Shown: positions 7,291 through 56,555 of the stretch, in pieces
How positions within the stretch are numbered: the stretch's first letter is position 1
How the letters are laid out: the number at the start of each line of letters is the position of its first letter
Assembly: GCA_021785065.1 (NCBI GenBank)
Contig: JAJYGQ010000003.1
Span: 2,470-66,469 of the forward strand
Length of the DNA: 64,000 nucleotides
Source: a bacterium
Lineage (GTDB): Bacteria; Patescibacteriota; Minisyncoccia; Phycocordibacterales; JAKAEA01
Direction of reading: 5' to 3'
The notes under the pieces: generated by a model
The model's database searches: none
Told to the model about the DNA's origin: nothing
Seen by the model: the letters and a program-made list of their open reading frames with translations, nothing else
Made by a program: the position numbers and the translations under genes

Positions 7291-7368
7291 TGATTGACAA
7301 TTTTTCTGAAGGTGCTACCATATTCGCAAGCGCCCGCGGGGCGGTTTTTAATAACAAAAATAACATCT

Positions 7369-7554
7369 ATGGGACTCGGAACATTTCTTAAGGAAACACA
7401 AGCTGAATTAAAACACGTCTCCTGGTTAACGCGCCGGCAAGCTATTATCTATACCACCATTGTGATTGCTATAACACTTGGTGTTGCTGCGTATCTCGGC
7501 GCGCTCGACTATATCTTTTCCAAAGCATTGCAATTTTTATTCGCCCATTTTTAA
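7369..7554 (+). CDS. secE: preprotein translocase subunit SecE
   Basis: 62 aa, FLKETQAELKHVSWLTRRQ + single TM helix, directly upstream of nusG. Confidence 0.8.
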   Translation: MGLGTFLKETQAELKHVSWLTRRQAIIYTTIVIAITLGVAAYLGALDYIFSKALQFLFAHF

Positions 7555-7563
7555 ACGTTCGTT

Positions 7564-8109
7564 ATGTCAAAACAAACTATCGGTGAAGGCCGAAACTGGT
7601 ACGTTATTCACACCTATGCTGGTTATGAAAATGCCGTAGCTCGCAACCTACGTCAACGCATTGAATCGCTCAACATGCAGGATAAGATTTTTAACGTTAT
7701 CGTGCCGACGGAAAAGAAAATTAAAGTAAAAGCGGGGAAGCGTACTGAAGAAGAAGAAAAAATATATCCTGGTTACATTATGGTGGAAATGGTTGTTACT
7801 GACGATAGTTGGTATGTGGTGCGCAACACCCCGCGTGTAACCGGTTTCGTTGGCTCTGGCGTCTATCCGGTACCTATTCCTAAATCAGAAGTGGAATCGC
7901 TCTTTGCTCGTATGAATGCTGATACACCGAAGCACGCTATCAATCTCGACATTGATGACCATGTCACTATCGTCGACGGTCCCTTCAAAGAGCTTGAAGG
8001 CCGGGTTAATGAAGTTGATGAAGAACGCGGTAAAATAAAAGTGCTGGTAAATATGTTTGGTCGCGAAACACCCGTGGAATTAGACTTCTTGCAAGTAAAG
8101 AAAATTTAA
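7564..8109 (+). CDS. nusG: transcription termination/antitermination factor NusG
   Basis: NWYVIHTYAGYEN NGN domain plus C-terminal KOW. Confidence 0.9.
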   Translation: MSKQTIGEGRNWYVIHTYAGYENAVARNLRQRIESLNMQDKIFNVIVPTEKKIKVKAGKRTEEEEKIYPGYIMVEMVVTDDSWYVVRNTPRVTGFVGSGVYPVPIPKSEVESLFARMNADTPKHAINLDIDDHVTIVDGPFKELEGRVNEVDEERGKIKVLVNMFGRETPVELDFLQVKKI

Positions 8110-8135
8110 GGTAGGCTGCTTGAGCAACAACTATT

Positions 8136-8558
8136 ATGGCTAAAAAAATCGTTAAACAATTAAAGCTTCAAATTCCAGGCGGTAAAGCTGTTCCTGGTCA
8201 ACAGCTCGGTCCGGCACTCGGCTCGGCGGGTATTAATATCGGTGAATTCGTAAAGCGTTTTAATGATGAAACGAAGGGACGTGTTGGCGAAACGGTGCCG
8301 ACAATCGTCTCTGTCTATGATGATCGCAGCTACTCACTCGCCTATAAAGTAGAACCCGCTTCAGCCCTTATCTTGAAAGCAATGGGCAAAGAAAAAGGTT
8401 CTGGTAAACCCAATACTGCTAAAATCGGCTCCATCACCAAAGCTCAGGCAAAAGAAATTGCTGAAAAGAAAATGCCTGATCTGAACGCCGCCTCAATCGA
8501 CGCCGCGGTACGTATCATCGAAGGCCAAGCCCGCTCTATGGGCGTGGAAGTAAAATAG
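8136..8558 (+). CDS. rplK: 50S ribosomal protein L11
   Basis: MAKKIVKQLKLQIPGGKAVPGQQLGPALG diagnostic of L11. Confidence 0.95.
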   Translation: MAKKIVKQLKLQIPGGKAVPGQQLGPALGSAGINIGEFVKRFNDETKGRVGETVPTIVSVYDDRSYSLAYKVEPASALILKAMGKEKGSGKPNTAKIGSITKAQAKEIAEKKMPDLNAASIDAAVRIIEGQARSMGVEVK

Positions 8559-8588
8559 TTTTTTCTAGGAAATTTTTCAAAAATAGTT

Positions 8589-8617
8589 TTGACACCAGCC
8601 GCTCGCGGGTGTACAAC
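8589..8617 (+). promoter_or_regulatory. sigma70-like promoter (TTGACA-17-TACAAC) for the downstream ORF
   Basis: Hexamers read directly; followed by AAAGGAG Shine-Dalgarno and ATG at 8660. Confidence 0.5.
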
Positions 8618-8659
8618 TACAACAGAAATCACAGTTCTTTTACAAGAAAGGAGTTTTGT

Positions 8660-9175
8660 ATGGCCGGTATTGATCCCAAAGAATTGTATGAGTGGTTTCA
8701 AAGAAAAGAATCACAACTTCTACATTACGAACATCTCACGAAGCGTTCTCAGACGTATCAACCTACAGAATCACGCCTTACCCGTGTAATGCATCGAATG
8801 TTCTGGGAATCGTTTTTTTCTACCTTTCAGGATCGGTTGCCTGGTATGTGTATAGAGTGGTACAAGGACGAAAAAAAATGTTTTGGTGAGAATAAGTTTC
8901 CTTGTGTTGTTACTACACGTTATTCTGGGATATGTGATCAGGTGCATTTTTGTTTGAGAGATGATCAAATCCAAATCAATTTTGATCAGGTTGCAATCTA
9001 CGGGTTATTTGGCGGCAATCAATGGTCTCTCTGTAAACCTGAGAGCATCACCCTCTCTTTTGCTCATTGTTTGTTTAATTGTGACGAAAGGAAAATTCAC
9101 TGCCTTGCGATTGGTGGAAATAGAAAATTTTTTACTATTTTCACTGATGGTTTGTGGCTTGGTGTTTTTAAGTAA
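8660..9175 (+). CDS. hypothetical Cys-rich protein (occupies the position normally held by rplA)
   Basis: Strong SD plus ATG; 171 aa with about 10 Cys; no recognisable family. Confidence 0.45.
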   Translation: MAGIDPKELYEWFQRKESQLLHYEHLTKRSQTYQPTESRLTRVMHRMFWESFFSTFQDRLPGMCIEWYKDEKKCFGENKFPCVVTTRYSGICDQVHFCLRDDQIQINFDQVAIYGLFGGNQWSLCKPESITLSFAHCLFNCDERKIHCLAIGGNRKFFTIFTDGLWLGVFK

Positions 9176-9192
9176 TGTCCAAATTTTTAAAA

Positions 9193-9225
9193 CCCCGCAT
9201 ATGGTGCGGGGTTTTACTTTTTTCG
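9193..9225 (+). terminator. rho-independent terminator
   Basis: CCCCGCA-tatgg-TGCGGGG hairpin followed by TTTTACTTTTTT. Confidence 0.75.
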
Positions 9226-9262
9226 ATTTATTTTTTATGATGGCGATATCGAAACATATCGT

Positions 9263-10387
9263 ATGAAAACAACATATTCAGCGGACGATAGAAAGGGGGC
9301 GTTACCGGCGGAAACACTTCACGAATTATGTGCTGCCGGGTTTATTAAAAGTGCTGATGTCGCCGCTCTGTCTAAAAATATTCGACCGTCGTCACTCGAT
9401 CTTTCAGTTTCTAATGAGGTGTATAAGGTAGAGGGAATTTTTCAGCCGAAAAGTCGTGAGACGGTGCGTCAAGTTCTAGACTGTATTCGTAAAACACGAC
9501 ACCCGATTTTACGACCATTGGAACGTAATCAAATGTACCTTATTCGTCTTAATGAAACGCTTGCGCTACCTGAAGTTGTCTATGGGCTTACCAATCCGAA
9601 ATCGACGAGCGGACGCATCGATGTGCATGTGCGTCTTTTGGCCGATGGCGTGTCTCGCTATGATTATTTGCCCGCCGGTTTTCGAGGGGAGCTCTGGATA
9701 TCTATTATGCCTAAATCATTTCCCGTCAAATTATACGAAGGGGTGACGCTAAATCAATTGCGACTCTTTAACGCCGATACGCGCCTTAATGACTTTGAGC
9801 TCGAGGTAGCTTTCAAGAAACATAAACTCCTGTGGCGTCGCACGGGGGAAGCCTATACCTACGAGGATATTTTAGTTCGTGATCACGACGGATCGGTGAT
9901 TCTCACGCTTGATCTTGAGGGAACAATATTAGGATGGGAAGGTGTACCCAATACGCATCTGGTGGATTTAGCAAAAATCTCTTTTTACGACGCCAAGAAA
10001 TTTTTTAAGCCGGTGAAGAAAAAAGGGGACTATGTGTATTTGAAAAAGGGCTCGTTTTATATTTTGTCGACGCACGAATATGTGCGTGTGCCGCCGGAGT
10101 TTGCCTGCGAAATGGTGCCGATGGATGAACGTTCTGGTGAGTTTCGCTCCCACTACGCCGGTTTTATTGACCCAGGCTGGGGTTGGGGTAAGGCCGGTGA
10201 AGGGAAGGGTCGGCCGCTGACGCTCGAGGTGCGACCATTTGAAGATTTGATTGTTCGTCAAGGTCAGCCTATTGCTAAAATTCGTTTTGAAAAAGTGACC
10301 GAGGCGCCGCGTGAGCCCTACGATACCCTCAATCCCAACTATGCTCGTCAAACCGGTCCCAAGCTCGCTAAACATTTTAAAAATTAG
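9263..10387 (+). CDS. dcd: 2'-deoxycytidine 5'-triphosphate deaminase, long (about 370 aa) form
   Basis: dCTP deaminase/dUTPase-fold motif GFIDPGWGWG (compare E. coli Dcd RIDPGW); length matches the long-form Dcd family; sits in a dTMP-pathway cluster. Confidence 0.6.
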   Translation: MKTTYSADDRKGALPAETLHELCAAGFIKSADVAALSKNIRPSSLDLSVSNEVYKVEGIFQPKSRETVRQVLDCIRKTRHPILRPLERNQMYLIRLNETLALPEVVYGLTNPKSTSGRIDVHVRLLADGVSRYDYLPAGFRGELWISIMPKSFPVKLYEGVTLNQLRLFNADTRLNDFELEVAFKKHKLLWRRTGEAYTYEDILVRDHDGSVILTLDLEGTILGWEGVPNTHLVDLAKISFYDAKKFFKPVKKKGDYVYLKKGSFYILSTHEYVRVPPEFACEMVPMDERSGEFRSHYAGFIDPGWGWGKAGEGKGRPLTLEVRPFEDLIVRQGQPIAKIRFEKVTEAPREPYDTLNPNYARQTGPKLAKHFKN

Positions 10388-10430: not shown

Positions 10431-10934
10431 TTACGAAATTCTCACGTAATCTTTAAAGACCATGCCATACTGATTCTTAGCGTCGGGTGGTTGTGCAGCT
10501 TCTCTTTCTAAAAGCCATTCATGCTTATTCCATGATGGAAAGAATGTGTCACCGGCGACGTGTGCGTCTACTTCTGTTAAATAGAGCCGAGAGGCAACAG
10601 GTAATGCTGCTTCGTACACTCTAGCACCACCAATAACAAAAACTTCTTCATCTGGACCAACATCACTGAGCGCTTCAAATAAAGAAGAGACAATAGTGCA
10701 TCCTGGCGCAGTGTAATCTGAACGACTGGTCAAAATAAAATTCTTACGATCCGGTAGAGGTTTACCCAAACGGGCTAGTATAGATTCGTAGGTCAGGCGT
10801 CCCATGAGCACCGCATTGCCGCGGGTGAGGTTTTTAAAGCGAGCCAGATCGGAAGGAAGGTGCCACGGCAAGTCGTTTTTGTTGCCAATGACACCATTTC
10901 GAGCGACGGCTGCAATAATCGACAAAGTCGCCAT
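10431..10934 (-). CDS. folA: dihydrofolate reductase
   Basis: IAAVARNGVIGNKNDLPWHLPSDLARFKNLT... classic DHFR N-terminus, 167 aa. Confidence 0.9.
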   Translation of the reverse strand: MATLSIIAAVARNGVIGNKNDLPWHLPSDLARFKNLTRGNAVLMGRLTYESILARLGKPLPDRKNFILTSRSDYTAPGCTIVSSLFEALSDVGPDEEVFVIGGARVYEAALPVASRLYLTEVDAHVAGDTFFPSWNKHEWLLEREAAQPPDAKNQYGMVFKDYVRIS

Positions 10935-10936: not shown

Positions 10937-11761
10937 TTACACGAGCATTTTTGCTTTTATGGCTGGCAGAGGATCGTAATTTTCGAGACGAATGTCATCC
11001 ATAGTGAAGCTGTCAATGTCTTTTATCTCCGGGTTGAGCCAGAGTTTTGGCAATGGACGCGGCTCCCGAGAAAGCTGCTCTTGTACAGCGTCGAAATGTT
11101 CATGGTAGATGTGTGCATCATTGAGAGTCAAGATACATTCATGCGGCTGCATGTCAACAACTTGCGCGACCATCGAAAGCAGAAGCGCATATGAGGATAT
11201 GTTGAAGGGTACACCTAAGAACATGTCGCAGCTGCGCTGGACCATGTGGAGAGAGAGTTTTCCATCAGCGGCGAAGAATTGAAAGAGCATATGGCACGGT
11301 GGCAAAGCCATCTGATCAAGCTCGCCAGGGTTCCAGGCGCTAACCACCAGTCTCCGATCGCTCGGATTTGTTTTGAGTTTTTCGATCACTTCTTTCAGTT
11401 GATCAACTTTGCCGTTAGGTCCTTGCCACGAGCGCCACTGGACACCGTAAATCCGGCCGAGGTCGCCGGGGAACTTCGCTTTCGGTTTCCAATAGGGCGC
11501 TTCGGCGTTGTCGGTCCAAATAGTTCGTTCGCTGCCATTTAGTTCCTTAAGGCGATTGTCGTCGCCGCTGCCTTCAATAAACCAGAGTAATTCGCTTGTT
11601 ACTGCTTTGAAAGCGAGCTTCTTCGTGGTCATGGCGGGAAAGCCGTCAGCCATGGGGAAGCGCATTTGCAAAGCAAAAAGCGCTCGTGTGTTACCGTTGC
11701 GACCCTCTCGGTCGATGCCAGAATCCATGATTTGACGAAGAACGTTTTGGTATGTTTTCAT
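10937..11761 (-). CDS. thyA: thymidylate synthase (ThyA)
   Basis: 274 aa from MKTYQNVLRQIMDSG; conserved ThyA blocks; abuts folA. Confidence 0.9.
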   Translation of the reverse strand: MKTYQNVLRQIMDSGIDREGRNGNTRALFALQMRFPMADGFPAMTTKKLAFKAVTSELLWFIEGSGDDNRLKELNGSERTIWTDNAEAPYWKPKAKFPGDLGRIYGVQWRSWQGPNGKVDQLKEVIEKLKTNPSDRRLVVSAWNPGELDQMALPPCHMLFQFFAADGKLSLHMVQRSCDMFLGVPFNISSYALLLSMVAQVVDMQPHECILTLNDAHIYHEHFDAVQEQLSREPRPLPKLWLNPEIKDIDSFTMDDIRLENYDPLPAIKAKMLV

Positions 11762-11860: not shown

Positions 11861-13066
11861 ATGAAAGACAAACAGGTTGAAAAGCTGATCAAGGCGGAGC
11901 GGGGGCGACAGAAAAAAGTGGTGAATCTTATTGCTTCGGAAAATTATGTTTCTAATGATGTGCTGGCGGCGCTTGGCTCGGAGCTCACTAACAAGTACGC
12001 CGAGGGGTATTCTGGGCGGCGCTACTACGGTGGGCAGAAATTCATCGACAAAATTGAAGACTTGGCCAAAGTGCGCGCGCTCAAACTTTTCAAACTCTCG
12101 GCGGCGAAGTGGCATGTGAATGTGCAGCCCCTTTCCGGTTCGCCGGCCAACTTGGCGGTGTATTTGGCGCTCGTGCCGCCCGGCGGAAAAGTTATGGGCA
12201 TGTCGCTCGATAATGGCGGTCATCTCACGCACGGTCACAAAGTTTCAGCGACAGGAAAATTTTGGGTGCAGGTGCCCTATGGGGTGCGCGAGCAAACCGA
12301 GCAGCTCGATTACGACGACATTAAAAAAATTGCTATGGAGCAAAAGCCAGACGTGATTGTCGCCGGCTTCACTGCGTACCCGCGTCGCGTCGATTTCAAA
12401 AAGTTTCGTGCTATCGCCGACGCTGTGACGCCGCGCCCGATTTTGATGGTAGATATGTCGCACTTCGCTGGCTTGGTTGCTGGTGAGGCCTATCCATCAC
12501 CGTTTGAAGATGCCGATGTGGTGACCACGACAGTGCATAAAACCCTTCGCGGTCCGCGGTCCGCACTTATTTTTGCGCGTAACGACGAGCGCGAGCTTGG
12601 TAAAAAAATCGATAAAGCAGTATTTCCTGGTTTGCAGGGCGGGCCGCACATCAATCAAATTGCGGCGGTGGCGGTAACCCTGAAAGAGGCGGCGTCGCCG
12701 GCGTTTAAAAAATATGCTCACCAAGTTGTTAAGAATGCAAAAGTTTTAGCTGATGAACTCTCCAAGCGTGGCTGGCGCATTATCTCTGGCGGCACCGACA
12801 GCCACCTGGTCCTCGTGGATACCTGGCTCAATGGCCTTGGTCTTTCCGGTAAAGAGGCGAGTGAGGCGTTAGAAAAAGCTGATATTATTGTTAATAAAAA
12901 CACTATTCCAGGCGAAACGCGTTCGCCGATGGACCCGTCGGGTGTGCGCCTTGGCTCGGCTGCGGAAACGACACGCGGCCGCCGCGAATCTGATATGAAA
13001 AAAATTGCCGCGAAAATCGACGCAGTCTTACGCAAAGCACAAAAATCAAAAAAGAAAAATTCATGA
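11861..13066 (+). CDS. glyA: serine hydroxymethyltransferase
   Basis: 401 aa, PLP-binding block TTTVHKTLRGPRS, SHMT N-terminal NLIASENY. Confidence 0.95.
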   Translation: MKDKQVEKLIKAERGRQKKVVNLIASENYVSNDVLAALGSELTNKYAEGYSGRRYYGGQKFIDKIEDLAKVRALKLFKLSAAKWHVNVQPLSGSPANLAVYLALVPPGGKVMGMSLDNGGHLTHGHKVSATGKFWVQVPYGVREQTEQLDYDDIKKIAMEQKPDVIVAGFTAYPRRVDFKKFRAIADAVTPRPILMVDMSHFAGLVAGEAYPSPFEDADVVTTTVHKTLRGPRSALIFARNDERELGKKIDKAVFPGLQGGPHINQIAAVAVTLKEAASPAFKKYAHQVVKNAKVLADELSKRGWRIISGGTDSHLVLVDTWLNGLGLSGKEASEALEKADIIVNKNTIPGETRSPMDPSGVRLGSAAETTRGRRESDMKKIAAKIDAVLRKAQKSKKKNS

Positions 13067-13773
13067 AGCAGCGCGCCGCGAAAGGAAAATTTATAGTCAT
13101 CGATGGTATTGACGGCACGGGCAAAGCCACGCAAGCGGCGCTGCTCGTTGAACGGTTGCGAAAAGAAGGGAGAAAGGTTAAGGCCATCGATTTCCCTGGT
13201 TACTATCGCAATTTTTTCGGCAAACTCATTGGTGAATATCTTGCTGGAAAATATGGCGACTTCATCGAAGTCGATCCGCACATTGCTTCGGTGCTCTATG
13301 CCGCTGACCGCTTTGAGTCGGCGCCGATGATTCGAACGTGGCTCGATGAGGGGTATATTGTTGTTGCCGACCGCTATGTAAGCGCTAATCAAATTCACCA
13401 GGGTGCCAAAATCGATAGCCCCGCCGGCCGTAAAGAATTTCTCCATTGGCTCGATAAAATGGAATACGGCGTTTTCAAAATTCCCAAACCCGACCTCATT
13501 TTGTATCTCGATTTGCCGATTCGGCTCAGTCAAAAATTGCTGCGCACCAAACTTGCCTCATTTAAGAAACGTTACAACAAAGGCCGCAAAGTTGATGTTG
13601 CAGAAGATAATCTCGCCCATATGGACGCCTCGCGGCGCAGTGCGCTCGGCATGATTAAGAAAAGCAACAACTGGCAAAAAATAGATTGCGACGGTGACGG
13701 CGAAATCAAACCACGCCAGGTTATTCACGAGCGCATCTGGAGTATTGTTGCCCCTTTTCTCGCACGGCGATAA
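13063..13773 (+). CDS. tmk: thymidylate kinase
   Basis: P-loop VIDGIDGTGKATQ, DRY motif; 4-nt overlap with glyA. Confidence 0.9.
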   Translation: MKQRAAKGKFIVIDGIDGTGKATQAALLVERLRKEGRKVKAIDFPGYYRNFFGKLIGEYLAGKYGDFIEVDPHIASVLYAADRFESAPMIRTWLDEGYIVVADRYVSANQIHQGAKIDSPAGRKEFLHWLDKMEYGVFKIPKPDLILYLDLPIRLSQKLLRTKLASFKKRYNKGRKVDVAEDNLAHMDASRRSALGMIKKSNNWQKIDCDGDGEIKPRQVIHERIWSIVAPFLARR

Positions 13774-13825: not shown

Positions 13826-14254
13826 ATGGCAATCACTATTAAAATTAAAAAATTGAGGCCTGATGCCAAGCTGCCAAGCTATGCGCATCCGGGTGATGTT
13901 GGTCTCGATCTCTACGCTATGGAGGAAAAAACCTTGGCGCCCGGCGAGCACTACCTTTTCAATATTGGTGTGGCTATCGAATTTCCGCACGGCTATGCGG
14001 GTATTGTGAAAGACAAAGGGAGCATCAGTAAAGCAAAACTACACACGATGGGCGGTGTCTATGATGCAGGCTATCGTGGCGAGTATAATGTGCATCTAGT
14101 GAATTTAGGTGATCAACCATACACTGTTGAAGTTGGTGACAAAATCGCTCAACTGGTAATCTTTCCCGTCGAAATTGCCAAAATAGAAGAAACTGATACG
14201 CTGTCCGAATCAGCCCGTGGCACTGGCCGCTTCGGCAGTACTGGCCGCAAATAA
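13826..14254 (+). CDS. dut: dUTP diphosphatase
   Basis: 142 aa, dUTPase motifs AHPGDVGLDLYA, GxIDxGYRG. Confidence 0.9.
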   Translation: MAITIKIKKLRPDAKLPSYAHPGDVGLDLYAMEEKTLAPGEHYLFNIGVAIEFPHGYAGIVKDKGSISKAKLHTMGGVYDAGYRGEYNVHLVNLGDQPYTVEVGDKIAQLVIFPVEIAKIEETDTLSESARGTGRFGSTGRK

Positions 14255-16640: not shown

Positions 16641-19600
16641 ATGCTAGTATTTGAGCCACGTATGGCTCAGTCTGACGAACAGGATAAAAAAACAATAAAG
16701 AGCCCCATTGCCGAGCGCGAGGAGGCGACACTGGCGTTTTGGCGTGAGCGGGACATTTTTCAAAAGACGCTCGATAAAAAATCTCTCGTTAAAGACGGCA
16801 AAGAGTGGGAATTTATTTTTTACGATGGACCGCCGTTTGCTACGGGCGAGCCGCACTATGGGCACATTTTGGCGGGTACTATAAAGGACGTCATTCCGCG
16901 TTATAAAACGATGTGCGGCTTTCATGTGCCGCGCCGGTGGGGCTGGGATTGTCATGGTTTGCCAATTGAGAATTTGATTGAGAAAGAGCTCGGGCTTTCG
17001 ACGCGCAAAGACATTGAAATGTATGGCATAGAAAAATTTAATGCCGCGGCGCGGGCGAGCGTTCTGCGCTACGACACGCTCTGGAAAGAAATTATTCCGC
17101 GCACTGGCCGCTTCGTGGATATGGATCATTCCTACGTAACGATGGACTGGCGTTACACCGAAAGTATTTGGTGGTCGTTTAGCGAACTCAATAAAAAGGA
17201 ACTCGTCTATCAAGGTTTCAAGCCGATGCATTTGTGTCCGCGTTGCGAAACGACACTTTCTAATTTTGAAGTCGGTCTTAATTATAAAGAGGTGACGGAT
17301 ATTTCGGTGTATGTGAAGTTTGAGCTGGTTGATGAGCCCGGCACATTTTTGCTGGCCTGGACGACAACGCCGTGGACTTTGCCGGGCAACGTGGCGCTCG
17401 CGGTAAATCCGAAAATAAAATACGTGCGCGTAAAAATAGAAACAGAGAAGGGGACGACGCTGGCCATTGTAGCTAACGAGCGTCTAAGTGCAATAAAAGA
17501 AACGTACACAATCGAAGAAGAATTTTCCGGAAAAAAAATTGTCGGCAAAAAATACAAGCCAGTGTTTCCGTACTATGAGAACGCGGCAGAGATAGAGCAC
17601 AAGGAAAATTTTTATACGGTGCAGGCGGCCGACTTTGTAACGACTGAAGATGGGACGGGTGTTGTGCATATTGCGCCAGGGTTTGGCGAAGATGATTACA
17701 ACTTGTCGCAAACGGCTGGGCTGCCGTTTATTCAGCATGTTGGCGTGGATGGGCGCTTTAAAAAAGAGGTGACGGATTTTGCGGGCCAGCAGGTCAAGCC
17801 GCGGCCGACGGCCGAGGAGCCGAATGCCCACCAGCGAGCCGATGTTGAAATTATCAAATATTTGGCCGCACACGGAGCTCTTTTTGCGAAAGAAAAAATT
17901 ACTCACAGCTATCCGCACTGCTGGCGCTGCGACACGCCGCTTCTGAATTACGCGACGAGCTCATGGTTTGTGAAGGTGGCCGACATAAAAAAGAAGTTGG
18001 TGGCGGAGAATAAAAAGGTGCGCTGGGTGCCGGAGGAGATTGGCCAGGGCCGCTTCGGTATGTGGTTGGAAAACGCGCGCGACTGGGCGGTGTCGCGTTC
18101 GCGTTTTTGGGGCGCGCCGTTGCCGGTGTGGCGTTGCGAGGAGTGTGGCACGTTTGAATTTATCGACTCTGTTAAAACGCTTTCTGAAAAATTGAAGCGT
18201 AATGAGTATTTTTTAATGCGGCACGGTCAAGCAGAGAGTAATGTGGCGAACGTTATTGTTGCTGATGAAAAGGCGGAGGATCCGTTAACAGCTGAAGGAG
18301 AGCAGCAAGCGGCTGACGCGGCAAAAAAATTTTCCGAAACGCTCGCTGGCAAAAAAATTGATGCAATTTTCTCTTCGCCGTTTGAGCGGACACACCAAAC
18401 AGCGGAAATTGTGGCGCGTGAACTTGGCTTTGAGGGAAAAATTGAAATTGATGAGCGTCTACGGGAACTCGGGGCCTTCGCGTTTGAAGGGGAGAGTCGT
18501 GAGAAACGCAACGAAGCGTATCGCGAAGGACGCGTTCCATCTAACGACGAAACACAGACGCATGAAGAAAAACGCATCGCCGAATTTTTCCACGATATTG
18601 ACGCACGTTTCAAAGGTAAAACAATTTTAGTGGTGAGTCACGCCGCGCCGCTTGCGGCAGCATTGCGTCTCGTTGAACCGCTCGGTGAGAAGAGCGTGGG
18701 CTTTATGGACAATGCTGAAATTCGCCCACTCCCATTTGTTGCTCTGCCACACGATGCTCATTTTAATCTCGATTTGCATCGGCCCTACATCGACGCCGTG
18801 GAGTTTGCTTGCTCGAAAGAAAATTGCCGTGGCACGATGAAGCGCGTGCCGGATGTTTTCGACACCTGGTATGAATCCGGCTCGATGCCCTTTGCCTCGA
18901 TTCATTTTCCTTTTGAACAAAAGTCTTCGAAAAAACCACCGCGCTTTCCCGCTGACTTTATCGCCGAGGGTCAGGATCAAACGCGCGGTTGGTTTTACAC
19001 CCTGCTCATTTTAAATACGGCGCTGTTTGGCCACGCTCCGTACAAAAACGTGGTGGTTAACGGTATTATTCTCGCCGAAGACGGCCAAAAAATGTCGAAG
19101 CGTCTCAAAAATTATCCCGACATTCGTTTTGTGTTGGATAAGTATGGGGCCGACGCATTGCGCTATTATCTGCTATCGTCACCGGTTGTGGAGGCTGAAG
19201 ACTTGGCTTTTTCTGAAAAAGGTCTCGATGAAGTGGTCAAAAAAGTTATCAATCGGCTCGATAATGTGTACGCGTTCTATGCGCTCTATGCAGATAAAAA
19301 TATTGCGCCGAGCGCCAATTCGCCCCACGTTCTTGATCGTTGGATTTTGGCGGCTCTCTCTAATATGTTGGGTGAGGTGACAGGAGAATTAGATAATTAT
19401 CGCCTTGATGCCGCTGCACGACCATTTGCGCAGTTTGTTGACGATCTCTCAACTTGGTATATTCGCCGATCGCGCGATCGTTTCAAAAATACTGACACTG
19501 CTCGTGACGCTATCGCTACCACGCGTTTTGTGTTGCGCGAGCTTGCAAAAGGCCTTGCGCCTTTTATGCCCTTTCTCGCTGAGGATTTGTATCAGAAAGT

Positions 19601-20165
19601 AAAAATGGAAAATGATCAGGAGAGTGTGCACCTTGAACGGTGGTCAGATGTTTCGGGAGGCGATCAAAAACTACTAACAGCAATGAACGCAACCAGAACG
19701 CTCGTGTCGCTGGCGCTTGAAAAACGGGCGGCGGCAGGGATAAAAATTCGCCAGCCACTCGGCGAGCTTTCAGTGAACGATTCGTTTGCCGCGGTGGCCG
19801 ACGACGAGGGCCTGGCCGAATTGGTGCGCGATGAAGTGAATGTGAAGAAAATTTTCAAAAACACGGAGCAAGCGGAGCCGGTTGTGCTGAATACAGCCAT
19901 CACACCTGAGCTCAAAAATGAAGGGATCGCTCGCGAGTTTATCCGCTCGATTCAAGATCTGCGCAAAAACGCTGGCTTGCGACCCAATCAAGAAATTACA
20001 CTTATCGTTGAAACTGCATCAGCCGGCCGAAAAATTATCGAAACACATGCTGCGGATATTCGCCAGGTAATCCGCGCCAAGAAAATTCTCTTCAAAATCG
20101 CAGAATCCGCGACGAATGAATTTTCTATTGATGATTTTGTTTTTAAAGTACGTTGGGAATTGTAA
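16641..20165 (+). CDS. ileS: isoleucyl-tRNA synthetase (type 2) carrying an inserted histidine-phosphatase (PGAM-like) domain
   Basis: HYGHILAGTIKD (HIGH) and KMSKRLKN (KMSKS); CP1 editing domain; about 180-aa in-frame insert (about 18201..18740) with RHGQAESN and VSHAAPL motifs between WRCEECG and HRPYID. Confidence 0.9.
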   Translation: MLVFEPRMAQSDEQDKKTIKSPIAEREEATLAFWRERDIFQKTLDKKSLVKDGKEWEFIFYDGPPFATGEPHYGHILAGTIKDVIPRYKTMCGFHVPRRWGWDCHGLPIENLIEKELGLSTRKDIEMYGIEKFNAAARASVLRYDTLWKEIIPRTGRFVDMDHSYVTMDWRYTESIWWSFSELNKKELVYQGFKPMHLCPRCETTLSNFEVGLNYKEVTDISVYVKFELVDEPGTFLLAWTTTPWTLPGNVALAVNPKIKYVRVKIETEKGTTLAIVANERLSAIKETYTIEEEFSGKKIVGKKYKPVFPYYENAAEIEHKENFYTVQAADFVTTEDGTGVVHIAPGFGEDDYNLSQTAGLPFIQHVGVDGRFKKEVTDFAGQQVKPRPTAEEPNAHQRADVEIIKYLAAHGALFAKEKITHSYPHCWRCDTPLLNYATSSWFVKVADIKKKLVAENKKVRWVPEEIGQGRFGMWLENARDWAVSRSRFWGAPLPVWRCEECGTFEFIDSVKTLSEKLKRNEYFLMRHGQAESNVANVIVADEKAEDPLTAEGEQQAADAAKKFSETLAGKKIDAIFSSPFERTHQTAEIVARELGFEGKIEIDERLRELGAFAFEGESREKRNEAYREGRVPSNDETQTHEEKRIAEFFHDIDARFKGKTILVVSHAAPLAAALRLVEPLGEKSVGFMDNAEIRPLPFVALPHDAHFNLDLHRPYIDAVEFACSKENCRGTMKRVPDVFDTWYESGSMPFASIHFPFEQKSSKKPPRFPADFIAEGQDQTRGWFYTLLILNTALFGHAPYKNVVVNGIILAEDGQKMSKRLKNYPDIRFVLDKYGADALRYYLLSSPVVEAEDLAFSEKGLDEVVKKVINRLDNVYAFYALYADKNIAPSANSPHVLDRWILAALSNMLGEVTGELDNYRLDAAARPFAQFVDDLSTWYIRRSRDRFKNTDTARDAIATTRFVLRELAKGLAPFMPFLAEDLYQKVKMENDQESVHLERWSDVSGGDQKLLTAMNATRTLVSLALEKRAAAGIKIRQPLGELSVNDSFAAVADDEGLAELVRDEVNVKKIFKNTEQAEPVVLNTAITPELKNEGIAREFIRSIQDLRKNAGLRPNQEITLIVETASAGRKIIETHAADIRQVIRAKKILFKIAESATNEFSIDDFVFKVRWEL

Positions 20166-41339: not shown

Positions 41340-41843
41340 ATGGCTCTATCAAAAAGTAAGAAAAAGGAAGTTTTAGACAAGGTTTCGCAGATTGCTGCAA
41401 AATCAGCGTCTATGGTGTTTGTGAACTTTCATGGTTTGCCGGTAGCGGAAACCACCGAGCTGCGCCGCGATCTTCGCGCCCAGGGTGTTAGCTACACGGT
41501 TGCGAAGAAGACCCTAATGCGTCGAGCCCTCGCTAGTGATATTGGTAAAACAATAGCGGGCGAGATGCCCGAGCTCGGCGGTGAAGTGGCTATTGCCTAC
41601 AGCACCGACGACGCATTAGCGCCAGCTCGAGAAGTGTATGCTTTTGAAAAAAAGCATGAAGGAAAAATTTCCATTCTCGGTGCCGTCTTCGATAACGCCT
41701 ACATTGATCGCGATGCCACTATGGCAATTGCGAGCATCCCACCACGCCAAACGCTCTTGGGTATGCTGGTAAATGTTATCAATAGTCCTATTCAGCGAAC
41801 AGCGATAGCACTGAGTGAAATCGCAAAAACCAAAACAGCGTAA
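41340..41843 (+). CDS. rplJ: 50S ribosomal protein L10
   Basis: [15 protein letters not shown]... L10 N-terminus, followed by rplL. Confidence 0.9.
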
Positions 41844-41889
41844 GTTTCAGTCGTCGTCCGCAATATTATTATTTCAATCATTAATTATT

Positions 41890-42303
41890 ATGGCAGAAGA
41901 AACAACAGCCGCTCCCGCCGCCGAAAAGGTGGAGGTACCGGCTCAATTCAAAACAATTGTCGAAAGTATTGAAAAAATGTCAGTGTTAGAACTGAACGAA
42001 TTAGTAAAAGTGTTCGAGAAGCGCTTCGGTGTTTCAGCCGCTGCTGTCGCCGCCGCTCCCGCCGCTGGGGCCGCTCCCGCTGCCGAAGAGAAGAGCACCT
42101 ACAATGTGCACCTGGCCGATGCCGGTGCTGGCAAGATTGCTGTTATCAAGGCAGTGAAGGAGGTGCTCGGTCTCGGTCTTAAAGAAGCAAAAGATTTAGT
42201 AGATGCCGCTCCATCAGTGCTTAAGGAAGGCATGAAGAAAGAAGACGCAGAAGCTCTCAAAAAGAAAGTTGAAGAGGCCGGCGGAAAAGTTGAGCTCAAA
42301 TAA
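41890..42303 (+). CDS. rplL: 50S ribosomal protein L7/L12
   Basis: Ala-rich hinge, C-terminal domain [19 protein letters not shown]...KVELK. Confidence 0.9.
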
Positions 42304-42357: not shown

Positions 42358-42987
42358 ATGATTGAAATTCTAGAAAAATTATTTGGTTCGGGGGCCAAAG
42401 TAAAAATAATGCGATTATTTTTGTTTAATCCGCATGCCTCGTTTTCTCTGATAGATATTGCTGAACGTTCACAAGTTGCACCGGTTGAAGCAAAGCGCAC
42501 ACTTACACTCTTTGAAGATATTGGTCTCGTTAAACAGCGTCATAGTGTACGAAGCAGTAAAAAACATTCAGCTAAAAAAAGTCATAAAAAGGAAATCAAA
42601 TTTAATAACACTAGCAGTTGGAGTATCAATAAAGATTTCAGTTACCTTAGACAATTACGTGAATTATTGCTCTATCCGAGTCCGGTTCGCGATAAGGAAA
42701 TTCTCACTCGTCTTGCTCGATCAGTAAAATTGCGATTAGTAATTTTATCGGGTGTATTTCTACAAAATCTCGACGCTCGTATAGATATGCTTATTGTTGG
42801 TGATAATGTTAAAAAGACCACACTTAGTACGACGATTAAAAAAATAGAGTCTGAATTGGGTCGCGAAATAAAATATGCCGCTTTTGAGACGGCTGATTTC
42901 AAGTACCGAATGAATATGTACGACAAGCTTGTGCGCGATGTGCTTGATTATCCCCACGAGAAAATTCTTGACAAAATAGGCCTCTAG
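42358..42987 (+). CDS. hypothetical protein (N-terminal wHTH-like, C-terminal possible nucleotidyltransferase-like region)
   Basis: 209 aa; IMRLFLFNPHASFSLIDIAERSQV helix-turn-helix-like; weak similarity only. Confidence 0.35.
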   Translation: MIEILEKLFGSGAKVKIMRLFLFNPHASFSLIDIAERSQVAPVEAKRTLTLFEDIGLVKQRHSVRSSKKHSAKKSHKKEIKFNNTSSWSINKDFSYLRQLRELLLYPSPVRDKEILTRLARSVKLRLVILSGVFLQNLDARIDMLIVGDNVKKTTLSTTIKKIESELGREIKYAAFETADFKYRMNMYDKLVRDVLDYPHEKILDKIGL

Positions 42988-43047: not shown

Positions 43048-43857
43048 AGCTCCTACCTGAATATGTTGATCAAAAAATTCCACTGCCGCTCGTAAAGGCC
43101 CTTAACAACGGCTTTTATGTCCGCGGCAACGCGGATTTTTTGTTTTCCGAACGATTGTTGCTTGAAAAATACATTCCGTCGCGGCACGACTTTCTAGCAT
43201 CGGCAACGATGTTAGAGGGGTCTTTATAGTGTCGTAGACGGGCAGGTAAAACAATACTGTTATTGAGAATCTTTGATTCCAGATAACAGAGTATATTAAT
43301 TGTGGTTCTTACATTTCCTGACGGGAATGTAAGGGCATATGGTGGATGCCTTGGCTTCAAAAGGCGATGAAGGACGTAGCATAACTGCGATAAGCTTCGG
43401 GGAGGTGTCGAGCAACCGTCAATCCGAAGATTTCCGAATGAGGAAACTCCCGCGTTTTAACGCGGACGTTTGCGCTTGACGCAAACGAGTATACCCAGGG
43501 AAGTAAAACATTTCAGTACCTGGAGGAATAGAGACCAATCGCGCAAGCGAATGGAATTTCCTAAGTAGCGGCGAGCGAAAAGGAATGAGCCCAAACCCGA
43601 TTCCACCTTTGCTGTTTGACGAGAGTCGAATAGCGGAGGTGCGATCGGGGGTTGTAAGGCGGTAACGTCACTTTTATAGTGAGAAGAGTTACAAAATGAG
43701 ATAGTAGCGGAACGTGCTGGAAAGCGCGGCCCCAGAGGGTAATGGCCCCGTACGCGAAACTAACTCATCTCTTTTGTTACCGTTCTTGAGTACCTCGAGA
43801 CACGAATGGCTCGGGGGAATCCAGCGGAACTAACCGCTAAGGCTAAATACTTTTGAA

Positions 43858-43897
<40 letters not shown>

Positions 43898-43967
43898 CAG
43901 CCCGGTGAGGGCGGTGAAATAGACCTGAAACCATATGCCTACAAGGAGTCAGAGCGGGGTACCACTT

Positions 43968-44385
43968 TGCGTGGTATGACGTTCTCAAAATAAAATTAAG
44001 AAAATTTATCTTTCATTCATCAAAATTTTATTGCTGAATATATACACTTTTATTGTGTACTATGTTTATGTAATACAAAGTTTGATGGATACAACCTTCT
44101 ACATAGGTTATACGAATTCAATTGATCGAAGATTGAAAGAACATAACTATAGTAAGGGTCGCTTTACCAGGAAACATATTCCCTGGAAACTTGTTTACTA
44201 TGAAGCATTTAACGACAAATTTCTAGCGAAACGTCGAGAAAAGATGCTCAAAGAAACCAGTAGGGCTTGGCAAGAATTACGAAAACGTCTCGGTGTTAAT
44301 TATCGAGAAAAAAAATCGCAAACAAATCCAGCCCAAGATATATTATTTTCTAAGTAAGTTTATAATTGAGGATGTCATAGTGCCT
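43968..44385 (+). mobile_element. about 415-nt AT-rich insertion in 23S helix-25 region (IVS-like or intron) carrying a GIY-YIG ORF
   Basis: Flanked by a perfect 13-bp helix GGGGTACCACTTT / AAAGTGGTACCCC; E. coli-equivalent position about 540-550, the classic IVS site. Confidence 0.6.
44031..44357 (+). CDS. GIY-YIG family nuclease (small stand-alone type) encoded inside the 23S insertion
   Basis: YVYVIQS...FYIGYTNSIDRRLKEHN plus downstream Arg/Glu catalytic residues. Confidence 0.75.
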   Translation: MLNIYTFIVYYVYVIQSLMDTTFYIGYTNSIDRRLKEHNYSKGRFTRKHIPWKLVYYEAFNDKFLAKRREKMLKETSRAWQELRKRLGVNYREKKSQTNPAQDILFSK

Positions 44386-46099
44386 AAAGTGGTACCCCGT
44401 CATGGCGTGCCTATTGAAGAATGAGCCAACGAGTTCTAGCATCCTGCGGGCTAAAGGCGCGAGCCTGGAGCCGCAGGGAAACCGAGTGTGAATAGCGCGT
44501 TTGTAGGATGCTAGAGACCCGAAGCCAGAGCGATCTACCCATGTGCAGGGTGAATGGTGCCGAAAGGCACCAGGAGGCCCGAACCGATAAGCCGTTCAAC
44601 ACTTTCGGATGACATGTGGGTCGAAGTGAAAAGCTAATCGAGCCTGGTAATAGCTGGTTCTCTCCGAAATAGCTTTTGGGTTAGCGTCGAATGTTCCCAG
44701 GGGGGGTAGAGCACTGGAAGGTCTCGACAGGGCGAAAGCTCGCGAGACCTATCAAACTCCGAATACTCTTGGTTAAAAGTTCGGCAGTTAGACTGTGGGG
44801 GCTAAGCTCCATTGGTCAAAAGGGAAACAGCCCAGATCTCCAGTTAAGGTCCCTAAATTTATGCTAAGTGCACTTAAGGTGGTAGAAATTCTCTAACAAT
44901 GAGGAGGTTGGCTTAGAAGCAGCCATCCTTTAAAGAAAGCGTAACAGCTCACTCATCGAGAGTTTCCGCGCCGAAGATAATCGGGGCTAAGCATAGTACC
45001 GAAACTGAGGACATTATTTTTCTTCGGAAAAATAGCGTGGTAGGAGAGTTTTCGTGTTGCGATGAAGGCGAAGGGGTGACCCACGCTGGAGCGTCACGAA
45101 GTAAGAATGTTGGCACAAGTAACCGCAATCAGTGTGAAAACCACTGACGCCGAAAGATCAAGGTTTCCTTGGCAATGACAATCAGCCAAGGGTTAGTCGG
45201 TCCTAAGGGGATGGCGAACGCCGCACCCGATGGATACATGGTTAATATTCCATGACTTTTGTGTTAGGCGATGAGAGGACGGAGTGCAGTATCCCGAGCA
45301 CCTTATTGGATTGGTGTTCGTGTCGTGAGAGTGGCGTGTAGGAAAATCCGCACGCGGCCGTAAGGCACATTCAAGCGAAGCGAAGCTGTTGAGGGCGACC
45401 TCGACCAATTCGGGAAAGCGCGCTTCCAAGAAAAGTCTCTAAGCTTACTAACACAGAAACCGTACCGCAAACCGACACAGGTGATCAGCTCGAGTAGAGC
45501 AAGGCGAACGAATGAGAAGTCCCCAAGGAACTCGGCAAAAAAGCGGCCGTAACTTCGGAATAAGGCCTGCCTATCGCAAGATAGGCCGCAGCTAAAGTAT
45601 GCTTGGCAACTGTTTACCAAAAACACAGCTCCCTGCGAACTCGAAAGAGGATGTATAGGGGGTGACACTTGACCAATGCCAGAAGGTCAACTATCGGCGG
45701 TGCGATTATATCAAGCTGACTGGTACAAGCCCTGGTGAATGTCGGTCGTAACTATAACGATCCTAAGGTAGCGAAATTCCTTGTCAGGTAAGTTCTGACG
45801 CGCACGAATAGTGTCATGACTGAGCAACTGTCTCGGGGACCCGTTCGGTGAAAATACAATACCGGTGAAGATGCCGGTTACCTGCAGCTAGACGAAAAGA
45901 CCCCGGAAGCTTTACTGCAACTTGGTATTGAGCGTACGTTGTTGATGCGTAGCATAGGTGGGAGAGGTTGAGGGCATGATCTCGGTTGTGCCGGACTCGT
46001 CAGTGAAATACCACTCTTCATAGGTGTACGTTCTAACCCGCGCGGCAAAAACGCGCGGAAACAGTACTAGGCGGGCAGTTTTAGTGGGGCGCTATCCTC

Positions 46100-47059
46100 A
46101 ACTTTGGGCGCCTCAGATTTGGTAAATGGTTCAAACGACCCTCCACCAAGTCAAATTATAAAATCAGGGGGACTTTAGTCCGTAAGGGCTATCGAAAAGT
46201 TAGCTATATGCTGGAACATCCGAGTATCTTTATGTACTCGCTCAAGTTTTTTGAGCAGTGAAAATCGTAAAGTGCGGACAATCAGCAGGAAATGCTCCTA
46301 TTCTAATATTTTTATTCAGCATAGAAGCAAATCCTCAGAGACTACACGCTAACCTCCGCGAAAGCGGATGATGATATAGTCCGATCTTTGTGGCGACACA
46401 AAGCTTACTACATATAGTAAGACCATTAATGAACACTAAGGAAATTCGGGAGTACAAAAACACTCTCAAACTTACTGACATTCAAAAATCTATTCTCGTC
46501 GGAACATTGTTGGGCGATGGACATTTAGAGACGCAAGATAACGGTAAAACGTATCGTCTCAAAATTGAACATCAGTTAGCCCAGCAAGACTACACGGAAT
46601 GGCTTCACAGCCACTTCAAAGAGTGGGTTAGAAATGGAATGTATAGAAAAGTAAAATCACAAGGTAAAGAATATGTCGGATTTACCACATATTCGCACGG
46701 CGCCTTCAGATTTTACGCTCAGCAATTTTACACTGAGAAAAAGAAACATATTCCCAGAATGATCAGTAAATTGCTAAATCCATTAGTTGTTGCGATCTGG
46801 TTTATGGATGATGGTTCGTGGAAATCAGAAAAACACGAAACCTTCATAATACATACGCTCGGATTCACAAAAGAAGATCTTACGTTGATACAAGATTCGT
46901 TTAGAAAATTGTTCAATATAGAAACTTCACTTCATCGACAAAAAGAAAGATATTGGAGGTTGTATATACGATCAAGTTCCGCAAAAGAATTTGAAAAACT
47001 AATACAACCTTACACATCACTCGTTGATTCTATGAAGAAAAAGATGGGTAACAATAAGC
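46100..47059 (+). mobile_element. group I intron in 23S rRNA (domain V, before CTAAAGAGTAACGGAGG) encoding a LAGLIDADG endonuclease
   Basis: Exon sequence resumes exactly at CTAAAGAGTAACGGAGGAG; intron contains AGAGACTACACG (P7/J8-7-like); ORF stop codon lies in the downstream exon. Confidence 0.7.
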
Positions 47060-47070
47060 CTAAAGAGTAA
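46390..47070 (+). CDS. double-motif LAGLIDADG homing endonuclease
   Basis: ILVGTLLGDGHL and VVAIWFMDDGS motifs about 100 aa apart. Confidence 0.85.
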   Translation: MATQSLLHIVRPLMNTKEIREYKNTLKLTDIQKSILVGTLLGDGHLETQDNGKTYRLKIEHQLAQQDYTEWLHSHFKEWVRNGMYRKVKSQGKEYVGFTTYSHGAFRFYAQQFYTEKKKHIPRMISKLLNPLVVAIWFMDDGSWKSEKHETFIIHTLGFTKEDLTLIQDSFRKLFNIETSLHRQKERYWRLYIRSSSAKEFEKLIQPYTSLVDSMKKKMGNNKPKE

Positions 47071-47392
47071 CGGAGGAGTCTATTAAGGTCGGCTAGGCGC
47101 GAATGGAAACCGTGCCGATAGGGCATTGCCACAAGCCGGCTTGACTGCAAGAGGTAAGTCTCGAGCAGGTGCGAAAGCAGAGCAAAGTGAACCGACCATC
47201 CGCATTAGATGCGGTGGAAGATTATCTGACAAAAGCTACTCCGGGGATAACAGGCTGGTACTGCCTAAGCGTCCATAGCGACGGCAGTGTTCGGCACCTC
47301 GATGTCGGCTCAAGATATCCTCCTGGTGGAGAAGCTAGGAAGGGTTTGGCTGTTCGCCAATTAAAATCTTACGCGAGCTGGGTTCAGACCGT

Positions 47393-47714
47393 TCAGCGCT
47401 CAAATCGGAATTTTGGAATTTTCTGAAATTTTTGACATTGAGCATTGAACCGTCTGAATCCCGAGGTTTAGTTTCAGTTCCACAACTATCTGTAACTTGT
47501 TCACGGCGGTCCCGTCGAGTAATCGGCGGTGACACAGTCAACTTATATCGGTGAAGCCCATATCGTGGGAACACGAGTGCTGGTGACACCTAGGGAATTT
47601 TGTAAATTTTTACAAATGCCCGTAGAGACTACACGTTGACTATCTTTCTCGGAGTTTATAGACCGAGTGAGATAAAAATATAGTCCATTGCACGGAGTGA
47701 TCCGTGGAAACAAG
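47393..47714 (+). mobile_element. ORF-less group I intron in 23S at the L2593-equivalent site (between GACCGT and CGTGAGACAG)
   Basis: Exon context GCGAGCTGGGTTCAGACCGT | ... | CGTGAGACAGGTTGGTC matches the I-CreI/L2593 homing site; contains AGAGACTACACG core-like element. Confidence 0.65.
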
Positions 47715-47856
47715 CGTGAGACAGGTTGGTCTCCTATCTGCTGCAGGCGTTGATTCTTGAAGAGATTTGACTCTAGTACGAGAGGACCGAGTTGAACTGA
47801 CCTCTGGTGTGGCAGCTCTGGCGCCAGCTGGACCGCTGCGTAGCTATGTCGGGAAC

Positions 47857-47889
<33 letters not shown>

Positions 47890-48072
47890 GACTCTAAGAT
47901 TAGGAATCGTTAAGACCCGTGGGAGATGACCACGTTGATAGGCACCAGGTGTACGCACAGTAATGTGTTGAGCCGAGGTGTACTAATTGGTCGATCTTGT
48001 CAGGAAATGTACGAAGCACAAAATATACTCTGTTACCTGGAATTACAAAGAAATTAAAACATTGAATGTTGT

Positions 48073-48186
48073 GTTCTGGTGGTTCGTCGCGGAGGTCACA
48101 CCTGATCTCATTCCGAACTCAGAAGTTAAGCTCCGTTGAGGCGATGGTACCGTCTATGGATGGGAGAGTAGCTCGCCGCCGGAACA
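48073..48186 (+). rRNA. rrf: 5S ribosomal RNA
   Basis: CCTGATCTCATTCCGAACTCAGAAGTTAAGC and GGGAGAGTAGCTCGCCGCC blocks. Confidence 0.9.
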
Positions 48187-48222
48187 GAGTATTCAATTTT
48201 TATATGATAGAATAGTAGTATT

Positions 48223-49056
48223 GTGTCGTGGTCAACGAAACGTAAGATTATTTACTTGGCTATTTTCATCGCCCTCGTTGCGGTGTTTTTAGGTTTTTTC
48301 CTATATTCTATAACCCGCCACACCGCGACTTGTTTCGATGGTATACAAGATGGCAACGAAACAGGTGTTGACTGTGGTGGGTCGTGTGTTCGACTTTGTT
48401 CTGATCAAGAGCAGCAGCCTATTGTGCTCTGGTCACGAATTTTTGCAATTGCTCCGGGGGTGTATTCGGCGGCGGCGTATGTTCAAAATCTTAATGCCAC
48501 CGCCCAAGCATTTTCTGTCCCGTACACGTTTACTTTTTGGAGCGCTACTGGGCAGTTACTCGGTAGCCGGTCGGGAACAACGTTTATCCCTGCTGGTCAA
48601 AATTTTACTGTCATTGAAAGTGATATTAGCGCCAGTCAACTTACCGCATCATCAACTCTTTCAGTTAACACGTCAGTAAAGGTGGGGCAGCAACTTCCCG
48701 CGAGAACCGATTTTCAGTTTGGGCCTATCCTCTGGGAGGTGGCACCAACAGCTACTCGCGATTTTAACGCTCTGCAAATAAGCAACCTGCAAACCTCGTT
48801 TTCTACGACGTCTACGCCGCGTGTTGAGGCCGATATCGCTAACGTTTCGTATACTGATTTGCCTCGCGTGGATATCTCCGCTATTCTGTACGATGCTTCT
48901 GGTAATGCTTTGGGCGTTTCTAAAACATATATTAGTAGCTTACCGCAGCAAGTTAGTAAACACATTGTCTTTACCTGGATTACACCGTTTGCAACGCCGC
49001 CAACACGCGTAGAATTGTTGCCTGTCGTTAATGAACCTCAACCTACCCCAAATTAA
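48223..49056 (+). CDS. hypothetical membrane-anchored protein
   Basis: 277 aa, N-terminal TM, Cys-rich juxtamembrane region; no family recognised. Confidence 0.45.
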   Translation: MSWSTKRKIIYLAIFIALVAVFLGFFLYSITRHTATCFDGIQDGNETGVDCGGSCVRLCSDQEQQPIVLWSRIFAIAPGVYSAAAYVQNLNATAQAFSVPYTFTFWSATGQLLGSRSGTTFIPAGQNFTVIESDISASQLTASSTLSVNTSVKVGQQLPARTDFQFGPILWEVAPTATRDFNALQISNLQTSFSTTSTPRVEADIANVSYTDLPRVDISAILYDASGNALGVSKTYISSLPQQVSKHIVFTWITPFATPPTRVELLPVVNEPQPTPN

Positions 49057-50185: not shown

Positions 50186-50196
50186 CTTGTTTTTAG

Positions 50197-51573: not shown

Positions 51574-51637
51574 TTGATTTTCTTGGCTATTTGGGGTAGG
51601 ATAGCCACGTTACCACTTCCATTATTTCTACACCCTC

Positions 51638-52987: not shown

Positions 52988-52997
52988 ATTTACTACT

Positions 52998-54643: not shown

Positions 54644-54650
54644 TAAAGAG

Positions 54651-54957: not shown

Positions 54958-56555
<1,598 letters not shown>

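Follow-up and report, generated by a model that had tools for sequence, protein, structure and literature searches.

The window analysed here, a 64-kb (64,000-nt) stretch of DNA, very probably belongs to a member of the Parcubacteria that lack ribosomal protein L1 (OD1-L1, GTDB class Paceibacteria), and the small orphan gene that stands in the position of rplA, ORF X, would not be a substitute for L1. That this lineage of Parcubacteria has ribosomes without L1, and an rplKAJL cluster that is broken up, has been established since 2015, and the combination of missing L1 with a retained helix H78 of the 23S rRNA was described in 2025. With the loss of L1 and the retention of H78 both in the literature, the window serves as a consistent example of them and is of low novelty in this respect. 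What the locus adds is local, namely new gene neighbours that are stable lineage-wide (rplK leads into dNTP genes, and rplL into a winged-helix-like ORF and the 23S rRNA), an L1 stalk RNA that appears to be maintained through compensatory evolution without its protein, and a vacated rplA slot that in one narrow group holds a hypervariable orphan, apparently swapped by recombination. ORF X is new but minor.

The divided ribosomal protein gene cluster

The upstream block is formed by secE (7369..7554, + strand, 61 aa; Pfam SecE, E 1.4e-16), nusG (7564..8109, +, 181 aa; Pfam NusG, E 8e-29, and KOW; 43% identity to E. coli NusG) and rplK, encoding L11 (8136..8558, +, 140 aa; Pfam Ribosomal_L11_N and Ribosomal_L11; 48% identity to E. 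coli L11). It is followed by ORF X (8660..9175, +), a hypervariable ORF of 171 aa with 9 Cys that is confined to a narrow clade and occupies the rplA slot, and by an intrinsic terminator (9188..9226, +) with a 13-bp stem at 9188-9216, 6 GC pairs and a T-run, which closes the secE-nusG-rplK-X unit and is kept in each of the four loci with an X allele. The tail of this terminator overlaps the -35 of a candidate dcd promoter. Beyond it, dcd (9263..10387, +), a long-form dCTP deaminase gene (Pfam DCD_N, DCD, DCD_C), is the first of a pyrimidine dNTP cluster that continues with folA (10431-10934, -), thyA (10937-11761, -), the SHMT gene glyA (11861-13066, +), tmk (13063-13773, +) and dut (13826-14254, +), these five being assigned from precomputed Pfam matches of an identical contig (L002).

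The downstream block lies 32.8 kb from rplK and consists of rplJ, encoding L10 (41340..41843, +; Pfam Ribosomal_L10), and rplL, encoding L7/L12 (41890..42303, +, 137 aa, with its true start at ATG 41890; Pfam L12_N and the L12 C-terminal domain). Next to it is a conserved ORF of 209 aa (42358..42987, +) with a weakly MarR-like winged-helix N-terminus, which in most relatives likewise stands between rplL and the 23S rRNA. The region upstream of rplJ showed neither an L10 leader nor any other cis-regulatory RNA, and none was found elsewhere in the 64-kb window at gathering thresholds. Compared with the canonical secE-nusG-rplK-rplA-rplJ-rplL-rpoBC cluster, as found in E. coli K-12 and in the distant contig L151, the window keeps two intact blocks, secE-nusG-rplK in the usual order and spacing and rplJ-rplL as a pair. 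However, rplA is missing, the blocks are far apart and rpoBC does not follow rplL; instead, rplK is succeeded by the orphan ORF and the dNTP genes, and rplL by the winged-helix-like ORF and the 23S rRNA. A preliminary description had placed rplJ-rplL at 41340..42303 and had reported secE-nusG-rplK without rplA after it, and both statements stand, with Pfam-confirmed neighbours and with ORF X and the terminator where rplA would be expected.

The same description had found no L1 gene in the window, and each search agrees. With E. coli L1 as the query, tblastn against the window returned a best E of 0.42, whereas E. coli NusG, L11, L10 and L12 were easily found by the same method. A second L1, from L151, gave no match by tblastn, a two-sequence L1 HMM matched none of the six-frame ORFs of the window, and PF00687 was absent from every sizeable window ORF with a Pfam scan or precomputed Pfam matches. 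In addition, a der-like ORF was not found in the 64 kb.

Relatives were compared by a NusG-anchored scan with one genome per species, from which the best 80 loci (66-98% identity) were taken; nearly all of these are labelled as Parcubacteria group, Paceibacteria, Zambryskibacteria, Taylorbacteria or similar MAGs. In 79 of the 80, rplK directly follows nusG. Sequence downstream of rplK extends for at least 800 nt in 70 loci and at least 3 kb in 65, and L1, L10 or L12 follows rplK in none of those 70. By clustering and Pfam, the 3' neighbours of rplK are instead mostly genes of pyrimidine nucleotide metabolism, encoding dCMP deaminase, dCTP deaminase in its short or long form, a cytidylyltransferase-like protein, Tmk, ThyA, DHFR, HIT, NT5C and NDK. 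An L10-anchored scan of metagenome contigs provided a further 65 loci, 46 of them with at least 800 nt upstream. No L1, L11 or NusG was seen upstream of rplJ in 64 of the 65, and rplA preceded rplJ in none of 45 related loci (the 46 with sufficient upstream sequence, minus L151). Most of these loci carry rplJ, rplL, a homologue of the ORF at 42358-42987 and then the 23S rRNA. The exception, L151, is the most distant of the L10 loci (L10 38% identical) and has the canonical order nusG-rplK-rplA-rplJ; as its L1 was readily recovered (51% identical to E. coli L1, E 1e-69), it serves as a positive control that the search detects L1 where it is present. Because rplA is missing and the cluster is split throughout the relatives, both traits would be ancestral and lineage-wide, and not a rearrangement of this genome. 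The earlier wording that rplJ-rplL had been "relocated" is thus right as to their separation but not as to an event in this genome, the split being an ancient state of the lineage.

The relatives support the placement of the window organism among the L1-less Parcubacteria, a placement made by best-match relatives and not by a tree. According to PMC5220378, which refers to Brown et al. (2015), OD1-L1 owes its name to the lack of rpL1 in all of its organisms, and the lack of rpL1 in a subgroup of Parcubacteria has been restated since (PMC7304191; Tsurumaki et al. preprint, bioRxiv 10.1101/2022.01.07.475337). More recently, der, rplA and H78 were analysed jointly, and Paceibacteria were reported to keep H78 while rplA and der are missing (PMC12641178, Mol Biol Evol 2025). 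The window resembles these organisms in that it and its relatives are without rplA at both canonical positions, in that its 23S rRNA keeps H78 and the remaining L1 stalk rRNA, and in its 23S insertions and introns and unlinked rRNA genes, which are hallmarks of the CPR; no feature of the window contradicts membership. The OD1-L1 reading offered in the preliminary description is therefore supported by the relatives, by both sites and by the literature.

The L1 stalk of the 23S rRNA

As the window holds its own 23S rRNA gene (43319-48004), the retention of H78 could be checked directly. The gene spans 4686 nt and carries three insertions, one with a GIY-YIG ORF, another being a group I intron that contains a LAGLIDADG ORF, and the third a sub-threshold group I intron; the 16S rRNA lies 6.8 kb downstream of the 5S rRNA. 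An Infernal alignment mapped to E. coli numbering places the L1 stalk, H76-H78 (E. coli 2093-2196), at 45930..46033 on the + strand. The stalk is intact and near consensus, with H78 at full length, and the window matches E. coli exactly at positions 2120-2126 (GGUGGGA) and 2166-2177 (UGAAAUACCAC). When five 23S sequences were compared (the window and four related contigs), H77 and the junction loops were invariant and H78 was 100% paired in all five, with six of its eight pairs changed on both sides. The covariation score of H78 was reached by none of 500 shuffles, and shifted registers scored far lower. This is modest evidence that the stalk RNA may be under selection without its protein; it comes from five sequences only and agrees with the published pattern. 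The rRNA of the L1 stalk contacts the elbow of the E-site tRNA, and this contact is the likely reason for the retention of the stalk RNA.

ORF X and its alleles

A spacer of 101 nt separates the rplK stop from the start of ORF X. Within it lies a candidate sigma-70-like promoter, read from the sequence (TTGACA-17 nt-TACAAC, 8589..8617, +), whose -35 at 8589-8594 is a perfect TTGACA and which a consensus scan missed because the final base of the -10 is C. The candidate is kept in two of three related loci, L088 and L087 (where the -10 is TATAAA), and is absent in L007. It is followed by a 5' UTR and Shine-Dalgarno region (CAGTTCTTTTACAAGAAAGGAGTTT, 8630..8659, +), conserved in a four-locus alignment, with AAAGGAG as the Shine-Dalgarno sequence. 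The spacer contains no terminator, and read-through from nusG-rplK is therefore as possible a source of transcription as a promoter of its own. The preliminary description had a promoter-driven ORF and a strong terminator following rplK; the ORF and the terminator are as described, but the promoter is a candidate only.

ORF X does not belong to a known family. It gave no match in Pfam at E values up to 0.01, and a PDB sequence-profile search returned no match and no L1. Across all four members of the X family, PHROGs yielded nothing, and the sole PADLOC match was a weak one to Cas8g in one member (E 0.007). A word-indexed search of 5.8 billion proteins found only ORF X itself. An exhaustive phmmer search of 1.84 billion representatives added two small proteins, P0002 (34% identity) and P0004 (26%), and a fourth copy is present in the closest genome, L007 (25%); a profile search with the four-member alignment found no further members. 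The family thus numbers four among billions of proteins, all lying between rplK and dcd, with 25-34% identity, and the homology search that the preliminary description had suggested for this ORF produced these same-slot members and nothing from a known family. The phmmer search also matched 14 and 6 stretches of two giant T9SS Ig-repeat proteins, which were judged to be Cys-rich repeat artefacts. The members share aromatic and glycine positions, and Cys64 is the sole invariant Cys, so that Cys-richness is not a trait of the family; the label of a Cys-rich hypothetical protein fits the ORF of the window, with its nine Cys, but not its relatives. No N-terminal signal-like segment could be read from its sequence.

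The variability of X is best seen in the comparison with L088. While NusG and L11 are 99.4% and 99.3% identical between the two, the X proteins share 25%. At the DNA level, most shared genes differ by 20-30%, but identity rises to 91-100% from about 7680 to the X start codon (8660), falls to about 40% across X and is 70-78% from the terminator onward. Within nusG, differing codons number 26 among the first 46 and 7 among the remaining 136, which places a recombination breakpoint near 7700. Further, contig L005 combines a window-type backbone (99.7% over 1.5 kb) with an L088-type X allele, and the switch falls inside the conserved 25-nt 5' UTR before X, an apparent allele-swap crossover at 8630-8659. 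The end of L005 is an inverted chimera, and this recombinant is to be read with caution over assembly or amplification artefacts. A strain-switch assembly chimera is nevertheless an unlikely origin for L005, because identity at the switch extends over only about 25 nt, and k141 in the name of the contig indicates a 141-mer assembly. A diversity-generating retroelement was also considered as the cause of X variability and rejected, as the divergence runs over the full length of the coding sequence and there is no reverse transcriptase nearby. X thus appears to be a strain-variable gene whose alleles are swapped by homologous recombination in conserved flanks.

Such behaviour has a known parallel. 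Strain-variable orphan genes are found in small flexible genomic islets between conserved core flanks and are exchanged by homologous recombination. X is likewise hypervariable between conserved flanks, with an adjoining tract of recent recombination, and its locus likewise includes a recombinant haplotype with one backbone and the other allele. Unlike those islets, however, X is one gene within a transcription unit of ribosomal proteins, without a partner gene, and no defence, toxin, immunity, surface or mobile-element domain can be recognised in it.

Alternative readings and a model of the locus

The intact 23S rRNA might suggest that rplA has merely moved outside the window and that the ribosome still carries L1. 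Its L1-binding site (H77, the junction loops and H78) is preserved, with a core that matches E. coli, and is conserved among the relatives, and the DNA examined amounts to 64 kb of the genome. However, the contact with the E-site tRNA elbow can explain conservation of the stalk without L1, and no rplA occurs beside its canonical neighbours in the 70 loci after rplK or the 45 before rplJ. HMM surveys of hundreds of CPR genomes also report lineage-wide absence of rplA together with a kept H78 (PMC5220378, PMC7304191, PMC12641178), and a moved rplA is accordingly considered very unlikely. That the broken cluster is instead an artefact of assembly or binning, with a chimeric contig joined at the 3' end of rplK, has a probability close to nil. 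Two short contigs from one study do have inverted chimeric ends near the locus (L004, and L005 inside X), but the order secE-nusG-rplK-X-dcd is reproduced on five independent ENA and Logan assemblies, and dozens of relatives sequenced in other studies share the junction of rplK to dNTP genes.

ORF X itself could be proposed as a lineage-specific L1 substitute, or as a very diverged L1 remnant, acting on the L1 stalk. It does stand where rplA would be, closing the nusG-rplK transcription unit, and the top Foldseek matches of its model are to the ribosome-rescue factor Pelota/Dom34 (E 4e-3). This model is of low confidence, as AlphaFold2 gave a pLDDT of 41 from the single sequence and, from a 3-sequence alignment, a pLDDT of 56 with a pTM of 0.51. 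Both predictions are too poor to rely on, and the fold searches were uninformative. Against E. coli L1, hhalign assigns the X family a probability of 0.2%. Further, four members in one narrow group contrast with a class-wide loss of L1, such a gene after rplK is missing from most L1-less relatives, and an identity of 25-34% between alleles beside near-identical flanks is unlike a ribosomal protein. A substitute or remnant of L1 is therefore regarded as exceedingly improbable. A related scenario would make X a factor acting on the L1-less ribosome, at the protein-free L1 stalk or the E site, and diversified by conflict with phage, host or other strains. This too is very improbable, although, if true, it would add X, expressed with nusG-rplK, to a reduced ribosome as an accessory component that varies between strains. 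ORF X is linked to the ribosome by its position alone.

The reading preferred here, an L1-less member of the Parcubacteria with an unrelated gene in the rplA slot, allows the following model. An ancestor of the lineage would have lost rplA, and the secE-nusG-rplKAJL-rpoBC cluster would have broken into two blocks. The secE-nusG-rplK block would then have come to adjoin the pyrimidine deoxynucleotide cluster (dcd, folA, thyA, glyA, tmk, dut), and rplJ-rplL to sit just upstream of the winged-helix-like ORF and the 23S rRNA. The ribosome is proposed to work with a protein-free L1 stalk, its H76-H78 held under purifying selection, as their conservation suggests and in keeping with published work. 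Within a narrow group of roughly genus level that includes this organism, a small and presumably cytoplasmic orphan, X, stands between rplK and dcd. Its transcript may start at its own sigma-70-like promoter, result from nusG-rplK read-through, or arise in both ways, and would end at the strong terminator. Its coding sequence is hypervariable while the promoter/5' UTR and the terminator are conserved, and its alleles appear to be swapped by homologous recombination there. X is most likely a strain-variable accessory gene with a part in conflicts or interactions with other organisms or elements, as judged from this pattern alone, and it may serve as a marker of strain-level conflict in uncultured symbionts.

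In other relatives, unrelated small ORFs follow rplK, several of them without a Pfam match, and the 3' end of the nusG-rplK operon seems to be tolerant of gene insertions. A same-slot ORF from Taylorbacteria (L036 1152-1592) is colinear with X by hhalign (probability 17%, E 1.5e-3) and may be a very remote homologue; it is treated as a lead and is not counted as a member of the family.

Probable recombination around nusG, rplK and the orphan ORF

Window positions 7680-8660 and positions 5030-6000 of L088, a related locus with its own allele of the hypervariable orphan ORF X (8660-9175 in the window), are 91-100% identical, whereas the two genomes outside this tract differ by 20-30%. The tract, about 1 kb long, comprises rplK, the candidate promoter of X and the 3' portion of nusG. 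Such near-identity indicates a recent recombination between species, with the tract ending exactly at X. Two short contigs from one ENA study have ends that jump to the reverse complement: L005, with a window-type backbone and an L088-type X allele, passes at 1592-1694 into an inverted copy of a downstream part of its X allele, and L004 passes at 2428-2466 into rplK sequence (8126-8164) read on the opposite strand. Both inverted ends are probably chimeras that arose during amplification or assembly, although an inverted end may instead reflect a real inversion in X.

Flanks of the secE-nusG-rplK block

Upstream of secE, which starts at 7369, the stretch 7294-7353 holds a sequence that matches a sigma-70-like promoter well (TTGACA-16 nt-TACCAT, preceded by an upstream TG), and a short GC hairpin with a T-run (7331-7353) lies directly 3' of this match. 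The hairpin could be the terminator of the SIMPL gene upstream, or alternatively could serve as a leader or attenuator of secE-nusG-rplK. On the other flank, genes of pyrimidine deoxynucleotide metabolism (dcd or dCMP deaminase, thyA, folA, tmk, dut, NT5C and NDK) are often linked to secE-nusG-rplK across L1-less Parcubacteria, 3' of rplK in the NusG-anchored relative loci L007-L086. In roughly one quarter of these loci unrelated small ORFs separate rplK from the pyrimidine genes, and several of these small ORFs are without a Pfam match.

The rRNA genes and their insertions

The rRNA genes (43319-57533) are unlinked and unusual in order, with 23S-5S (5S, 48075-48184) first and 16S (54956-56562), followed by tRNA-Ile(GAT) (57459-57533), only after six protein genes, including those for FtsW, a sugar transferase, SecD and SecF. 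The 23S rRNA spans 4686 nt (43319-48004) because of three insertions. The first (about 43955-44467) encloses a GIY-YIG endonuclease ORF (44031-44357), and no intron RNA is recognisable in it; the second consists of an intron of group I (46133-46403), scoring 77.9 bits, and a subsequent LAGLIDADG ORF (46390-47070). The third (47405-47707) has no ORF and matches a group I intron at a sub-threshold 31.9 bits; its insertion site is at approximately E. coli position 2593/2594. Between rplL and 23S, a 209-aa ORF (42358-42987) keeps its place in most related contigs (L090-L145), at 33-71% identity to its homologues there. Its N-terminus has a weak winged-helix, MarR-like match, and it could be a regulator linked to the rRNA or r-protein unit.

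A putative mobile element at tRNA-Ile

The 3' end of tRNA-Ile is overlapped by the gene for a large serine recombinase (57488-58987, on the minus strand), beyond which lie an ORF2/G2P-type Rep gene (59024-59782, minus strand), ORFs without assigned identity and a ClpP-like protease (61467-62009). The region 57459-62100 has the appearance of a prophage or other integrated mobile element; no att repeat was found. A 74-nt unit is perfectly duplicated in tandem within it (61224-61371). Elsewhere in the window, the isoleucyl-tRNA synthetase (16641-20165; 1174 aa) carries, in precomputed Pfam matches, a His_Phos_1 (histidine-phosphatase) domain between two tRNA-synt_1 catalytic-domain matches.
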